Shown here piece by piece: positions 22,413 through 50,907 of a DNA stretch of 64,000 nt. The DNA lies in sequence record NC_028248.1. The stretch is one strand, 5' to 3'. Below the pieces are notes generated by a model. The model made no database searches, had not been told where the DNA came from, and saw nothing but the letters and a program-made list of their open reading frames with translations. This DNA is from Escherichia phage slur16. Position 1 is the first letter of the stretch; each line of letters starts with the position of its first letter. A program made the translations under genes and the position numbers.

Positions 22413-22511
22413 GGTGCTAGGTGATGGAATCGAACCACCTATGTATTCAACGACTACCTCGTCTATTTTCAGGATTAAAAATCCTCGCCCTTGCCAAAGG
22501 GCTTACCTAGC
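22413..22511 (-). tRNA. aberrant tRNA-like gene (possible pseudo-tRNA; Lys-UUU-like anticodon loop but oversized variable region)
   Basis: Perfect 7 bp acceptor GCUAGGU/ACCUAGC, D-arm GCCC-UUUGGCAA-GGGC and T-arm GGUGG-UUCGAUU-CCAUC, but ~47 nt between D- and T-arms; only CC encoded at 3' end. Confidence 0.3.
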
Positions 22512-46749: not shown

Positions 46750-47560
46750 CAAACTGGCCGTTGTAAAACTCTCCTAACCTCATAAGAGGGGTCGGTAAAT
46801 CCGGCTAACGGGGAACGCTAAGGCGAAAGCTATGCCAATCCCGTGACTAGTTCTTACAGGAGTTGGAACGGTTGTAACGACTAACGAAAGGCAGAGATGC
46901 TTGACAAACATTTCTGAACCAAGTAGTGTAGGGGTTAGTTGAAATACTAACTTCGAAATGGAGAGGCTCTATGAAAAAGATCATTCTTAATGGTGAAGAA
47001 TCAAACTATGTGATTGATGAAGTTGGAAACGTATACGGAAAACGTGGAATGCTGCACCCAATATTGTGGGGAGGTTATGGAAAAGGTAATAAGCATGTTA
47101 AACGCCGTTATATGTACTCTTTCAACCACAAAGGTAAAAAGATTCGAATCCAAACCTCAAGGGTTGTTGCCTTGTATTGTTTGCCAGATGTCCCAGAAGA
47201 CCCTGAAAACTGGGAAGTGAATCATAAAGATGGCAATACATTGAATGATCATCCGTCTAACCTAGAGTGGGTTTTGCCGGAAGATAATAAGAGACATGCT
47301 TTCCGAACAGGACTTTGTCCAGGTAAGTGCTATAGGAAAGTGCAGGCATACAAAGGGAAAATCTTGGTGGGTGAATATCCTTCACTCTACGCCTGTGCAA
47401 AAGCCTTAAATTTGAACGTAGGTAACGTTCACAGGGCTATCGAAGGAAATGCCGAAGGTAAGCATCTCACAATAAAGGGTTATTATCTTATTGAAGTAGA
47501 GTAAGAGATAGTCTGGCCCTGTGGAAACACAGGGAGGAGACAGCAGACTCCATTCATCAC
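46750..47560 (+). mobile_element. group I intron in nrdD carrying HNH homing endonuclease
   Basis: Q-like AATCCCGTGAC (46848-46858), R-like GTTGTAACGACTAACG (46871-46886), S-like AAGAGATAGTCTGG (47503-47516) flanking the HNH ORF; splits one nrdD reading frame. Confidence 0.8.
46971..47504 (+). CDS. HNH homing endonuclease (intron-encoded)
   Basis: 177 aa; HNH core EVNHKDGNTLNDHPSNLEWV; lies inside nrdD intron. Confidence 0.8.
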   Translation: MKKIILNGEESNYVIDEVGNVYGKRGMLHPILWGGYGKGNKHVKRRYMYSFNHKGKKIRIQTSRVVALYCLPDVPEDPENWEVNHKDGNTLNDHPSNLEWVLPEDNKRHAFRTGLCPGKCYRKVQAYKGKILVGEYPSLYACAKALNLNVGNVHRAIEGNAEGKHLTIKGYYLIEVE

Positions 47561-47561
47561 A

Positions 47562-48806
47562 TTGAGTTTAGGACTGGATACCTCGGTCTTTGGTAGAATG
47601 ATTACCAAAAACTACCTGAAAGTCCACAAAATGGGTCTTGGTGAAGAACGTATCACACCTGTGTTCCCTAAAGTGCTGTTCTTCCTGGAAGAGGGTGTCA
47701 ACATGAACCCTGGGGATCCTAACTATGATTTGAAACGATTAGCTCTGGAATGCTGTGCAGAACGTATCTATCCTGACTTCGTATCTGTACCACTAAATAG
47801 AAAAGTGACAGGCTCGACAGATGGCAAAGTAACTAGCATGGGTTGCAGGAGTTTTCTTAGCAAATACAATGACTTGGAAACAGGCGAGGAGAAATACCTT
47901 GGCAGATTTAACTTAGGCGTTGTTAGCCTTAACCTGCCAATGATTGCGGCAAAAGCCAAGACGGAAGGTGTTGATTTCTTTGCAGTTCTTGACGAATACT
48001 TGGATCTTGCATACGAGGCTCACCTTGTAAGGGTTAATCGTCTAAAAGGAACAAAGGCAGGGCAGAACCCCATCATGTGGTGTGAAGGCGCTCTTGCTCG
48101 CCTGGATCCTGAAGAGAGTATTGATAAACTCTTCTATGACGGGTACGCTTCCATCAGTATTGGGTATATCGGTGTGTATGAAACCTGTCAGATTTTGGGC
48201 AGAGAGGGTGACAAGGCTTTAGCTCTTGGAATCCTTCAGCACATGAGAGATGCTTGTGAGCGATACAAGAAGGAAAGTAGACTAGCATTTAGCTTGTACG
48301 GCACTCCTTCTGAGAGTCTATGCTATAAAGCTGCAACCTGTCTGGATCGTGAATATCCGGAAGTGTTGAAGCACGAGCATGAATATCTCACCAACAGTTT
48401 CCATCAGCCAGTATGGATAAATAGCTCTCCTTTTGATAAGTGGGAGTATGAGGAAGGTTTTGCTATAATCTCCTCTGGTGGCAACATCGGATACGTAGAA
48501 ACACCTAACCTGAAAAACAACCTGGATGCTTTAGAGGCTCTTGTTGACTTCGGGTATAAACACATTATGTATTTTGGTATTAACCAACCTGTGGATAAAT
48601 GTCTCAAGTGTGGTTTCTCTGGTGAGTTCAGTGCAACAGCTAAAGGCTTTGTATGCCCAGAGTGTGGAAACCATGAAGAGGGAACGATCAGTGTAATTCG
48701 ACGTGTGTCTGGATACCTTTCCAGTCCTAACTCCCGTCCTTACAATAAAGGTAAGCAAGCGGAAGTTATCGAGCGAGTTAAGCACTACGGAAGTTGTGGT
48801 TGCTGA
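47562..48806 (+). CDS. nrdD: anaerobic ribonucleotide reductase, exon 2
   Basis: GRFNLGVVSLNLP; C-terminal zinc ribbon CLKCGF...CPECG and glycyl-radical motif RRVSGYL; exon probably begins 10-40 nt upstream of the ORF-track TTG. Confidence 0.8.
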   Translation: MSLGLDTSVFGRMITKNYLKVHKMGLGEERITPVFPKVLFFLEEGVNMNPGDPNYDLKRLALECCAERIYPDFVSVPLNRKVTGSTDGKVTSMGCRSFLSKYNDLETGEEKYLGRFNLGVVSLNLPMIAAKAKTEGVDFFAVLDEYLDLAYEAHLVRVNRLKGTKAGQNPIMWCEGALARLDPEESIDKLFYDGYASISIGYIGVYETCQILGREGDKALALGILQHMRDACERYKKESRLAFSLYGTPSESLCYKAATCLDREYPEVLKHEHEYLTNSFHQPVWINSSPFDKWEYEEGFAIISSGGNIGYVETPNLKNNLDALEALVDFGYKHIMYFGINQPVDKCLKCGFSGEFSATAKGFVCPECGNHEEGTISVIRRVSGYLSSPNSRPYNKGKQAEVIERVKHYGSCGC

Positions 48807-48869: not shown

Positions 48870-48986
48870 ATGTCATCAGGTATTTATAAAATTTGCAAGT
48901 GCGGCTGTAGTTGTAATCTTCGTTGGTGCAAGGCACTAGACGATTTTATTTGGCATTGCCCTAAATGTGATGCGGAGTATCTATGA
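48870..48986 (+). CDS. small Cys-rich zinc-ribbon protein (38 aa)
   Basis: MSSGIYKICKCGCSCNLRWCKALDDFIWHCPKCDAEYL; AGGAGG RBS 7 nt upstream; stop overlaps nrdG start; below ORF-track size cutoff. Confidence 0.4.
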   Translation: MSSGIYKICKCGCSCNLRWCKALDDFIWHCPKCDAEYL

Positions 48987-49456
48987 ACATTGCTGGATAC
49001 ACAGAAATATCTTACACCGAAGGACCAGGTATTAGAACTGCCTTGTGGGTATCTGGGTGCCCACACGCTTGCCCTGGTTGCTTTAATCAGGCATTTTGGT
49101 CAAAAGATAAGGGGAGGAAGTTCACTGAAGAAGACTTGCAAAAAATCTTGTCAGATTTAGATAACCCGTCTGTGTGCGGTATCTCTCTACTGGGTGGAGA
49201 ACCCTTAGCATACTATAATGAGCCAGATATTATTAGCCTGATGGAGAAAATTAAGGAAAAATTTGGTGACAAGAAAACTATTCTTGTATATACTGGGTTC
49301 ACATTTGACCATATCTCTAGTGATGTTCTTAAACTGGCTGATATCATCATTGACGGTAAGTATGTAAAAGATTTACCAACCAAGAAACCGTTCCGAGGCA
49401 GTGATAACCAAAGAATGTTTAAAAAAGTATCAGGCGGTTGGGTTCAGGTAGACTAG
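48983..49456 (+). CDS. nrdG: anaerobic ribonucleotide reductase activating protein (radical SAM)
   Basis: Cysteine cluster CPHACPGC near N-terminus; ~157 aa; follows nrdD. Confidence 0.8.
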   Translation: MNIAGYTEISYTEGPGIRTALWVSGCPHACPGCFNQAFWSKDKGRKFTEEDLQKILSDLDNPSVCGISLLGGEPLAYYNEPDIISLMEKIKEKFGDKKTILVYTGFTFDHISSDVLKLADIIIDGKYVKDLPTKKPFRGSDNQRMFKKVSGGWVQVD

Positions 49457-49459
49457 TTG

Positions 49460-49489
49460 TTGACAAAGCTTTGTTGAGTTGGTTATAAT
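49460..49489 (+). promoter_or_regulatory. sigma70-like promoter (near consensus)
   Basis: TTGACA (49460-49465), 18 nt spacer, TATAAT (49484-49489). Confidence 0.6.
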
Positions 49490-49518
49490 TGCCGTAATGA
49501 AAGCAGAGGAGGTGCCAA

Positions 49519-49632
49519 ATGGCTAAAAAAGCCTTGAAGAAGGCGTACAAGAAAGAGATTGCGCTTGAGCTTAAGAAAAAACACAAGCGTGAAAAGAAAC
49601 ATCATGAAGATGAAGAGGGGGTGCAACAGTGA
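49519..49632 (+). CDS. small highly basic protein (37 aa)
   Basis: MAKKALKKAYKKEIALELKKKHKREKKHHEDEEGVQQ; strong RBS GAGGAGG; overlaps next ORF start. Confidence 0.35.
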   Translation: MAKKALKKAYKKEIALELKKKHKREKKHHEDEEGVQQ

Positions 49633-49979
49633 CACAAGAACGTATCGATTTGGCTAATAAGTTTGTAGATCTCATTTTGCCACGGTTAGTTACTCAACAT
49701 GCAGATGCTATTTCTACTAATCTTGATGGCTTACGCCTAATGCTGAATCGCACAGATGACCCTCGTATTCGGGCTGATTTAGAAGCCTCTGCCAACAAAC
49801 TGGAAAAGTTCTTGCAAGTAGACACGCAAGAAGCCTTGCACAAGATTATGGTGGAAGGTTTCTCTAAAGAATTTACCATTAAAGAGCTTAAGGAGCTGAT
49901 CCACCAAGAAGAGATGAATATCCGAGTTCAGGCTGTTGCAAGCAGCATGGAAGCGGCTATTGAAAAACTGTTGCAGTAA
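49629..49979 (+). CDS. hypothetical protein
   Basis: 116 aa helical ORF, GTG start. Confidence 0.4.
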   Translation: MTQERIDLANKFVDLILPRLVTQHADAISTNLDGLRLMLNRTDDPRIRADLEASANKLEKFLQVDTQEALHKIMVEGFSKEFTIKELKELIHQEEMNIRVQAVASSMEAAIEKLLQ

Positions 49980-50017
49980 AAGTACTTGGCACATCTCAAT
50001 CTGAAAGGAGTCCCAAC

Positions 50018-50806
50018 ATGGGTCGAGCTAAAGAAACAAAACGCATGCGTGATGAAGCTAGAGAGGCTCGCAAATCTGATCGCCTGCGTAAGGCTGCTGA
50101 GAAATTTGCTGACGAAAGAGAGCACACCGCTCCAGCTCTCCGACCAATGAATAAGAAGCAGCAAAAGTATCTTGATTATCTAGGGTCACGTAAGATTATT
50201 ATTGTAAACGGTGTGTTTGGATCCGGTAAGACATTCATGGCATCTGCATATGCAGGTGATCTTCTGCGTAAGAACGAGATTGATAAGATTATTGTTGCAC
50301 GTCCTTACGTTCAGACAGGAAAGACTTCAGGATTTAAACCTGGAAATGCAATGCAGAAACTGTGGCCCTATCTTCGAAGCATGATGGACACGATTTGTCG
50401 TCGTGTTGGCAAAGGTGCTTTTGCCGCAATGCTGGGAGACGGTCAGAACAGCCGTATCGAGATTTGTGAAGTTGAAAGCATTCGTGGTCGTAGTTTCGAT
50501 GAGCGATGCTTTGTCCTGATTGACGAGGCACAGCAAACTAACCCTGAAGAAATGTTGTCAATTATCACAAGGATCTCTGATCAAGCCACCCTTGTAATTA
50601 TGGGTGATAATAGCCAACGTGACATCCCTGGTAAATCTGGCCTTGCATGGGTGACGGATTTCTTTACTCGTCATCCAGATCCTGAGGTTGGAATGATCAG
50701 CTTTGATAGTCCAGACGATGTCGTTCGTTCTGGGTTGGGTCGTCAGATCGCACTCAATCTTATTGAGGATCGTGCAAATCATATTTGGACCCCTGTTTCC
50801 GAGTAA
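50018..50806 (+). CDS. phoH: PhoH-like ATPase
   Basis: Walker A GVFGSGKTFMA and Walker B-like VLIDEAQQ; ~262 aa. Confidence 0.8.
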   Translation: MGRAKETKRMRDEAREARKSDRLRKAAEKFADEREHTAPALRPMNKKQQKYLDYLGSRKIIIVNGVFGSGKTFMASAYAGDLLRKNEIDKIIVARPYVQTGKTSGFKPGNAMQKLWPYLRSMMDTICRRVGKGAFAAMLGDGQNSRIEICEVESIRGRSFDERCFVLIDEAQQTNPEEMLSIITRISDQATLVIMGDNSQRDIPGKSGLAWVTDFFTRHPDPEVGMISFDSPDDVVRSGLGRQIALNLIEDRANHIWTPVSE

Positions 50807-50850
50807 TACAGAAGGGTGGTTATTCCACCCTTAAATATCTAAAACAGTTG

Positions 50851-50879
50851 TTGACAAATAGGTAAGCTTTAGATATTAT
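50851..50879 (+). promoter_or_regulatory. sigma70-like promoter
   Basis: TTGACA (50851-50856), 17 nt spacer, TATTAT (50874-50879); same TATTATCGG downstream motif as promoter at 33327. Confidence 0.55.
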
Positions 50880-50907
50880 TATCGGACAAAACAGAGAGAA
50901 GGACAGT

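Follow-up and report, generated by a model that had tools for sequence, protein, structure and literature searches.

A conserved basic microprotein gene and its adjoining acidic partner gene in Vequintavirinae-type phages

Results

Layout and annotation of the locus

In the window, that is, the whole stretch of 64,000 nucleotides of Escherichia phage slur16 (NC_028248.1) that was analysed, an open reading frame at 49519..49632 (+) encodes a basic microprotein of 37 aa, MAKKALKKAYKKEIALELKKKHKREKKHHEDEEGVQQ (gp113, or ORF 118, of phage rV5; PHROG 7670). Six nucleotides 5' of its ATG at 49519 lies a Shine-Dalgarno sequence, GAGGAGG (49506..49512, +), and farther upstream stands a sigma-70 consensus promoter (49460..49489, +), P118 of rV5, composed of TTGACA (49460-49465), an 18-nt spacer and TATAAT (49484-49489). 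The ORF, the promoter and GAGGAGG had been picked out by an earlier note on this DNA, and reading of the sequence placed all three where they had been reported. The TGA of the small ORF (49630-49632) overlaps, as GTGA, the GTG start codon (49629) of a partner gene (49629..49979, +; gp114, or ORF 119, of rV5; PHROG 7650), which encodes an acidic protein of 116 aa with a predicted four-helix structure. The earlier note makes no mention of this overlap. The Shine-Dalgarno sequence of the partner, GAGGGGG (49615..49621, +), falls inside the small-ORF codons Glu33-Gly34. The next gene after the partner encodes a PhoH-like ATPase (50018..50806, +), and the next promoter-like site, the near-consensus TTGACA-17-TATTAT (50851-50879, +; P121 of rV5), lies directly 3' of phoH. 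Because there is no terminator-like site between them, phoH is probably cotranscribed with the small ORF and gp114.

The small-ORF peptide contains 13 Lys and Arg, 7 Asp and Glu and 3 His residues, with a net charge of +6, and 54% of its residues are charged. Residues 1-28 carry net +10 and residues 29-37 net -4. Its parts are a helix (residues 1-19), a Lys/Arg/His patch (19-27) and an acidic patch (30-33), and codons 20-21 contain an A6 run (49576..49581, +).

The 2 kb around the small ORF are 100% identical to slur12, rV5_ev147/156 and JohannBauhin, and 95-99.9% identical to about 120 further Vequintavirus (rV5-like) records; the window is that of a Vequintavirus, an rV5-like coliphage. In every annotated record opened, the small ORF is a CDS for a "hypothetical protein", including rv5_gp113 (= ORF 118, YP_002003615.1), Murica gp173, bas53_0178, slur12_00045 and magaca_43 (pVOG VOG7801). 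The Murica record annotates an RBS before the small ORF and another in the stretch equivalent to 49615..49621. The same peptide as in the window is encoded by slur12, JohannBauhin and Murica; relative to rV5, there is one difference, H28Y. Kropinski 2013 (PMC3606486) lists gene 118 of rV5 as 37 aa, 4482 Da and pI 9.8, without homologues (Tables S3 and S4), gene 119 as 116 aa and pI 5.1, and P118 in Table S4; the rV5 record labels the latter "Sigma70-type promoter; P118", and the window promoter differs from it by one spacer base. Thus, neither the gene nor its promoter is new: GenBank has carried both from the time of the rV5 annotation, and PHROG 7670 is the catalogue entry of the family. The remark in the earlier note that the ORF was missing from the ORF track owing to its size holds for that track alone, whereas the public records do annotate the gene. 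The exact 37-aa sequence had no match in a 15-billion-protein collection.

Several further observations concern the surroundings and the records. The nrdD region (46971-48806, +) appears to be split: 46971-47504 holds an ORF of 177 aa that carries an HNH motif (EVNHKDGNTLNDHPSNLEW...NKRHAF), and just 3' of it, at 47562-48806, lies a 414-aa C-terminal nrdD ORF. The layout is the same in slur12 ('nrdD_1'), nrdD is 1911 nt in JohannBauhin and 2124 nt in rV5, and in TH18 it is annotated in three pieces; the interruption is probably a homing-endonuclease insertion. A second microprotein gene (48870-48986, +) encodes a 38-aa Cys-rich peptide, MSSGIYKICKCGCSCNLRWCKALDDFIWHCPKCDAEYL, with a zinc-ribbon-like CxC...CxxC pattern. 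The gene ends with a stop codon that overlaps the start of nrdG. JohannBauhin and slur12 annotate it as hypothetical, and there is a call for it in the Logan lineage L014 as well. In a cluster of seven tRNA genes, ARAGORN called a tRNA of 99 nt whose anticodon has four bases, 'atcc' (22413-22511, -), at whose equivalent place JohannBauhin has a 97-nt tRNA-Lys (AAA); this tRNA may be intron-containing or otherwise atypical. In JohannBauhin, bas53_0151, about 9 kb beyond the P121-type promoter, is annotated as 'ribosome hibernation factor'.

Product names in the nrdG-phoH block are shifted or mis-propagated in magaca, nimi and APECc02. The magaca record labels nrdG a 'putative minor capsid protein' and the 38-aa ORF an 'anaerobic ribonucleoside-triphosphate reductase', and it gives the name 'PhoH-like protein' to the ORF that follows phoH. 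In addition, nineteen 'Campylobacter phage' records (MG0656xx, host C. jejuni) show approximately 97-99.9% identity to window positions 48900-50900, which suggests that they are mislabelled or contaminating coliphages.

The promoter within and outside Vequintavirus

The pattern TTGACA-N16-18-TATAAT has one exact occurrence on the two strands of the 64-kb window, as compared with 0.05 expected from dinucleotide shuffles, and the P118 site was the sole 12/12 match in the 12 kb scanned. In 11 Vequintavirus sequences, the -35 and -10 hexamers were unchanged, and the spacer was variable at about 11 positions. Because the hexamers are invariant while the spacer varies, P118 is, as judged from the alignment, a selected element inside Vequintavirus. 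GAGGAGG was kept in nine of the 11 sequences and was near-identical in the remaining two.

P118 is not conserved outside Vequintavirus sensu stricto, being absent in L014, PVP-SE1 and TH18. In the 66%-diverged L014, a 32-nt gap with no promoter precedes the small ORF, and in PVP-SE1 and TH18 the small-ORF ATG comes directly after the nrdG stop. In KB57, GAP31 and 4MG, TTGACA is present in the upstream intergenic region. These comparisons indicate that the small ORF is the constant element and that its dedicated promoter is lineage-specific.

In the same three phages, inspection by eye found a GC-rich hairpin-like stretch after the TTGACA (2411-2500 in loci L007 and L008, 2235-2324 in L004), for example GCCCATCC...TGGTGGGC, located 5' of the small-ORF RBS. 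The window has no such hairpin. The hairpin could be an attenuator or a processing site.

A literature search found no transcriptome or gene-fitness data for Vequintavirinae. The CRISPRi-ART paper used the near-identical phage EdH4 in single-gene, not genome-wide, tests.

Family distribution and selection on the small protein

ORFs of at least 25 aa number 78 in a 5.5-kb part of the window, and by length alone a 37-codon ORF is no evidence of a gene. The small ORF goes beyond chance because of the conservation of its promoter, the distribution of its changes over codon positions and the conservation of its peptide across genera.

Residues 1-37 of the small ORF matched profile positions 1-37 of the 46 of PHROG 7670 with E 2e-20, and the KB57 homologue matched the same profile with 2.1e-27. 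Homologues in other genera were reached by walking from the partner gene. They were identified in KB57 (Mydovirus, 46 aa), in Hena1 and SNUABM01 (Henunavirus, 45-49 aa), in PVP-SE1, GAP31 and 4MG (Seunavirus, 46 aa), and in the unclassified TH18 (48 aa). When 5.8 billion proteins were searched with a profile, 38 homologue clusters of 32-52 aa were obtained, none of them fused to another domain, and the long contigs bearing these clusters are all about 135-150 kb, as are these phages. A search with the small-protein alignment gave 11 IMG/VR loci, to which a degenerate DNA pattern added one. The homologues fall in four named Vequintavirinae genera and unclassified relatives, and the distribution is limited to one phage subfamily, that of the Vequintavirinae-type phages.

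The N-terminal residues 1-19 follow the consensus M-[SA]-K-[KR]-x-L-[RK]-K-A-Y-x-K-E-[LI]-A-[LM]-[EA]-L-[RK], which is nearly invariant across the subfamily. Next in order are a cluster of Lys and Arg residues, a patch of acidic residues and a tail that differs by lineage. Between genera, the first 19 codons showed pS of 0.8-1.0, that is, saturation, versus pN of 0.05-0.34; for PVP-SE1 and TH18, the values were 0.96 and 0.05, respectively. Exchanges between Lys and Arg among genera use unrelated codons (AAA/AAG versus CGT), and therefore the constraint acts on the protein rather than on the RNA. The small-ORF mRNA folded no better than its shuffles (z = -1.04), and Rfam gave no match for the region.

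Within Vequintavirus, 11 of the 14 variable sites in the small ORF are third codon positions of its (+) frame. The 11 sequences contain four amino-acid changes (K7N, H28Y/R and V35A), three of them C-terminal. The conservation analysis that the earlier note had named as a check thus revealed clear conservation, both within the genus and across genera.

The identity of the 19-residue N-terminus between lineages is 47-89%, compared to 58-89% for PhoH and 24-66% for the partner. For the window versus PVP-SE1, these residues are 68% identical, PhoH 58%, NrdG 46% and the partner 28%; for PVP-SE1 versus Hena1, the N-terminal residues are 84% identical, PhoH 89% and the partner 34%. Taken together, the substitution patterns indicate that the small ORF is a genuine protein-coding gene under purifying selection.

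The A6 run is a hot spot for insertions and deletions. A 1-nt deletion in it gives a frameshifted 45-aa variant (P0038), found in two sequence backgrounds and five contigs (loci L038 and L039), in which residues 1-20 are kept, the tail is replaced, and the ORF overlaps the partner start by 29 nt. Another variant (P0036) has an insertion of 6 nt at the run, which adds two Lys residues. These indels could be true polymorphism or homopolymer assembly error. Because assemblies hold frameshift variants that lack residues 21-37, the tail of the small protein may be dispensable.

Pairing with the acidic partner gene

The partner matched PHROG 7650 with E 2.5e-57. The distance from the small-ORF stop to the partner start was between -8 and +8 nt in 12 of 12 lineages checked, and in L014, KB57 and Hena1 an equivalent purine-rich Shine-Dalgarno sequence also lies within the 3' end of the small ORF. 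For tblastn with the small protein, the KB57 and Hena1 homologues took the place of the window peptide owing to low-complexity masking; the small protein and the partner retrieved the same 69 non-Vequintavirus phage records, with equal genus counts.

An exhaustive HMMER search of 1.84 billion representatives found 16 partner clusters, all of 69-152 aa and free of fusions. Upstream of the most divergent of these (P0085, E 4e-8) lies an ORF that reads MSSKKFKKAYAKELALELRNKNKKKK..., and the order nrdG-small-partner-endolysin-PhoH is intact. The second most divergent partner (P0084) shows the same pattern, and the upstream ORFs of both keep the motif core KAYxKELALxxR.

The order small-partner-(endolysin)-PhoH was present in every lineage examined. 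The endolysin gene follows directly 3' of the pair in Seunavirus, Mydovirus, Henunavirus, TH18 and L036, whereas in Vequintavirus it is about 17 kb away and the pair still lies between nrdG and phoH. The charges of the two products are complementary in eight of eight lineages, with +6 to +9 for the small protein and -2 to -10 for the partner (pI 4.6-5.6). These comparisons suggest that the most informative feature of the small gene is an obligate acidic partner gene to which it appears translationally coupled.

A programmed frameshift that would fuse both ORFs was considered and rejected: the frame offset of the partner is not constant between lineages, being +2 in the window, KB57 and PVP-SE1 but +1 in Hena1.

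Predicted structures and searches for function

AF2 predicted a single helix for the small protein, with pLDDT of 88-89 over residues 1-20 and poor values afterwards. For the partner, it predicted four helices (residues 3-41, 45-62, 64-81 and 84-115) with a pLDDT of 92.9. By helical-wheel arithmetic, the invariant residues K3, L6, K8, A9, Y10, K12, E13, L14, A15 and L18 map to every face of the small-protein helix. The helix is not significantly amphipathic (muH 0.30, equalled by 30% of shuffles), and the mean hydrophobicity of the small protein is -0.26 to -0.44.

The searches for known functions gave no significant match. Among 34 family members, no Pfam or NCBIfam family was found at E <= 0.001, and Pfam gave no recurrent signal; likewise, Pfam, NCBIfam and the PDB yielded no match to small ribosomal, RNA-binding or DNA-binding protein families. 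The best PDB match, the proteasome subunit PSMD4, which has ELALALR in common, was rejected as chance (E 0.36). QKELAL was also considered as a beta-clamp-binding motif and rejected, as position 11 varies (K, T, E, N, A, R, S). In the search for defence or counter-defence systems with PADLOC, the small protein had no match, and the best for the partner was Cas8g (E 0.016, 12 bits). The Foldseek search for the partner was uninformative in the PDB (best E 0.27; the secreted antigen BPSL2520 and a DUF2059 protein) and returned only its own family and two unnamed proteins in BFVD. A weak S30AE match of the partner (E 0.035) is below the cut-off and conflicts with the all-helical model.

The text and Table S5 of the rV5 virion proteomics (PMC3606486) contain neither gp113 nor gp114. 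This absence fits a non-structural role, although a Lys-rich peptide of 4.5 kDa would escape tryptic mass spectrometry in any case. The earlier note had proposed that such lysine-rich peptides may bind nucleic acid or ribosomes; for the small protein, this is plausible because its N-terminal half carries net +10.

Discussion

Proposed role of the pair

We tentatively favour, at somewhat less than an even chance, the reading that gp113 is a basic single-helix subunit that forms a complex with the acidic gp114 and engages a conserved polyanionic target. In Vequintavirus, the host sigma-70 RNA polymerase would transcribe gp113 from P118. The small protein would then be translated from its strong Shine-Dalgarno sequence, and translation of gp114 would be coupled to it via the GTGA overlap, the tail codons of gp113 doubling in part as the Shine-Dalgarno sequence of gp114. 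The small basic subunit (net +6 to +9) would pair with gp114 (net -2 to -10), and the invariant helix, joined by the basic patch, would act on a target that stays the same across enterobacterial hosts and phage genera. This target could be the neighbouring, equally conserved PhoH-like ATPase, a nucleoprotein machine of the host or nucleic acid, and the pair would presumably act in the early or middle, nucleotide-metabolism phase of infection.

The constraint on the helix bears on the nature of the target. As the constraint extends all round the helix and is far above that of the partner, it suggests that the helix contacts something that barely changes. The hosts across the family comprise Escherichia, Salmonella, Klebsiella, Cronobacter, Erwinia and Proteus. 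In addition, the partner evolves far faster than the N-terminal helix of the small protein, which would be odd if the partner were the sole ligand of the helix.

Alternative explanations

In a related reading, which we consider rather unlikely, the helix would be a host-takeover microprotein that docks onto a component shared by all Enterobacterales, such as RNA polymerase, the nucleoid, the ribosome or the machinery of rRNA maturation, or else an obligate cofactor of PhoH, and gp114 would be its chaperone or regulator. If this were true, the pair would constitute a new two-component effector module of Vequintavirinae and possibly the first functional handle on phage PhoH.

It is improbable that the small ORF is a cis-acting leader whose translation delivers ribosomes to the weak GTG of gp114, or regulates gp114 by coupling or nascent-peptide arrest, with a peptide that is idle in trans. 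Such a leader would account for the stops and starts that overlap or lie no more than 8 nt apart in every lineage, for the position of the partner Shine-Dalgarno sequence within the last small-ORF codons, and for the GTG start of the partner in the window. However, the first 19 codons are under strong purifying selection at the amino-acid level with saturated synonymous sites, and coupling needs no such selection. In arrest peptides such as SecM and TnaC, the conserved residues adjoin the stall site. The conserved part of the small protein is N-terminal, 18-30 residues from the stop, and variability is highest in the tail that borders the stop. Furthermore, the Seunavirus partner has its own ATG and Shine-Dalgarno sequence beyond an 8-nt gap, and the mRNA fold is not significant.

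The very basic composition would also suit a packaged internal peptide that either neutralises the charge of capsid DNA or is co-injected with it, and whose assembly chaperone would be the acidic partner. We regard this as very improbable. Its absence from the rV5 proteome is uninformative in this respect, since the peptide would be invisible in virion mass spectrometry after a tryptic digest, and a neighbouring small gene is annotated as a virion structural protein in Seunavirus and Mydovirus. Nevertheless, a sigma-70 promoter precedes the gene, which belongs to an early or middle metabolic block remote from the morphogenesis genes, and non-specific neutralisation would not need a 19-residue motif conserved on all faces of a helix. 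Neither protein has annotation or proteomic support as a packaged component.

A role as a lysis accessory at the end of infection, either as a cationic disruptin-like peptide of the kind of phiKT gp28 or as an endolysin-associated envelope factor, is highly improbable. The pair does adjoin the endolysin gene in Seunavirus, Mydovirus, Henunavirus, TH18 and L036, and the peptide shares with gp28 a small size, a positive charge and a helical structure; yet in Vequintavirus the pair stays between nrdG and phoH, about 17 kb from the endolysin gene, behind a sigma-70 consensus promoter amid nucleotide-metabolism genes rather than in a late lysis cassette. The peptide is also 54% charged, compared to 27% in gp28, and has no significant hydrophobic moment. 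As rV5, PVP-SE1, 4MG and GAP31 are listed with two-component spanins (PMC6139136), no spanin substitute is needed.

Finally, the view that the small ORF arose by chance, or is an artefact of annotation, in intergenic DNA rich in A, with the promoter alone functional and driving gp114 and phoH, could be entertained on the grounds that short ORFs are plentiful, that the exact sequence is missing from the large protein collection, and that tblastn with the 37-aa peptide came back empty (the low-complexity filter being the cause), but it is effectively refuted, as judged from the sequence comparisons, by the cross-genus protein conservation at saturated synonymous sites, the third-position bias within the genus, the PHROG profile match and the strong, ideally spaced Shine-Dalgarno sequence.

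Significance

In our judgement, the small ORF is a sound gene whose family is already catalogued and whose interest is modest. The present analysis adds that the N-terminal helix is near-invariant, that the gene is strictly coupled to PHROG 7650, that it is restricted to Vequintavirinae-type phages and that the A6 run is an indel hot spot; no mention of the first three points was found in the records or the literature. The 19-residue helix is approximately as conserved as PhoH, across genera that have otherwise diverged to about 25-30% protein identity. The subfamily that carries it is widely used in therapy and biocontrol collections, and the small protein is a cheap and well-defined target for peptide pull-downs or knock-down screens that could illuminate the role of phage PhoH-like ATPases. 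If it is merely a structural adaptor of gp114, its wider impact would be small.

Comparison with known systems

rV5 gp113, PHROG 7670 and VOG7801 are the same gene as the small ORF, with no structural difference, and their records read 'hypothetical protein' or 'unknown function'. As regards the neighbouring ATPase, the E. coli PhoH-like protein YbeZ is described in PMC5101352 as interacting with YbeY, a 16S rRNA maturation factor. In size and charge, the small protein is like bS21, Sra, RMF and the phage-encoded S21, but it has no sequence match to them in Pfam, NCBIfam or the PDB.

The N proteins of lambda and P22 are early phage gene products with a short basic N-terminal helix, and the small protein resembles these arginine-rich-motif peptides in both respects. 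In contrast to them, it is rich in Lys, K and R replace each other from lineage to lineage, and the whole protein is only 37-52 aa long, with no regions that bind NusA or RNAP. Nor was a conserved boxB-like hairpin observed, and there was no Rfam match. The SecM and TnaC leader peptides are likewise encoded by a short ORF directly 5' of, or overlapping, the next gene and have a conserved peptide sequence. The conserved segment of the small ORF, however, is N-terminal rather than next to the stop, and its mRNA structure is not significant.

The 'disruptin' gp28 of phiKT (bioRxiv 10.1101/515445) is likewise small, cationic and predicted to be alpha-helical, and its net charge of +7 is similar to the +6 of the window peptide; it is 56 aa long, and 15 of its 56 residues are charged. 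Compared to gp28, the window peptide has twice the charged fraction, no significant amphipathicity and an acidic tail. The gene adjoins the endolysin gene in several genera, but not in Vequintavirus. In addition, the small protein differs from gp28 in having what appears to be an obligate soluble acidic partner, and the phages that carry it have spanins.
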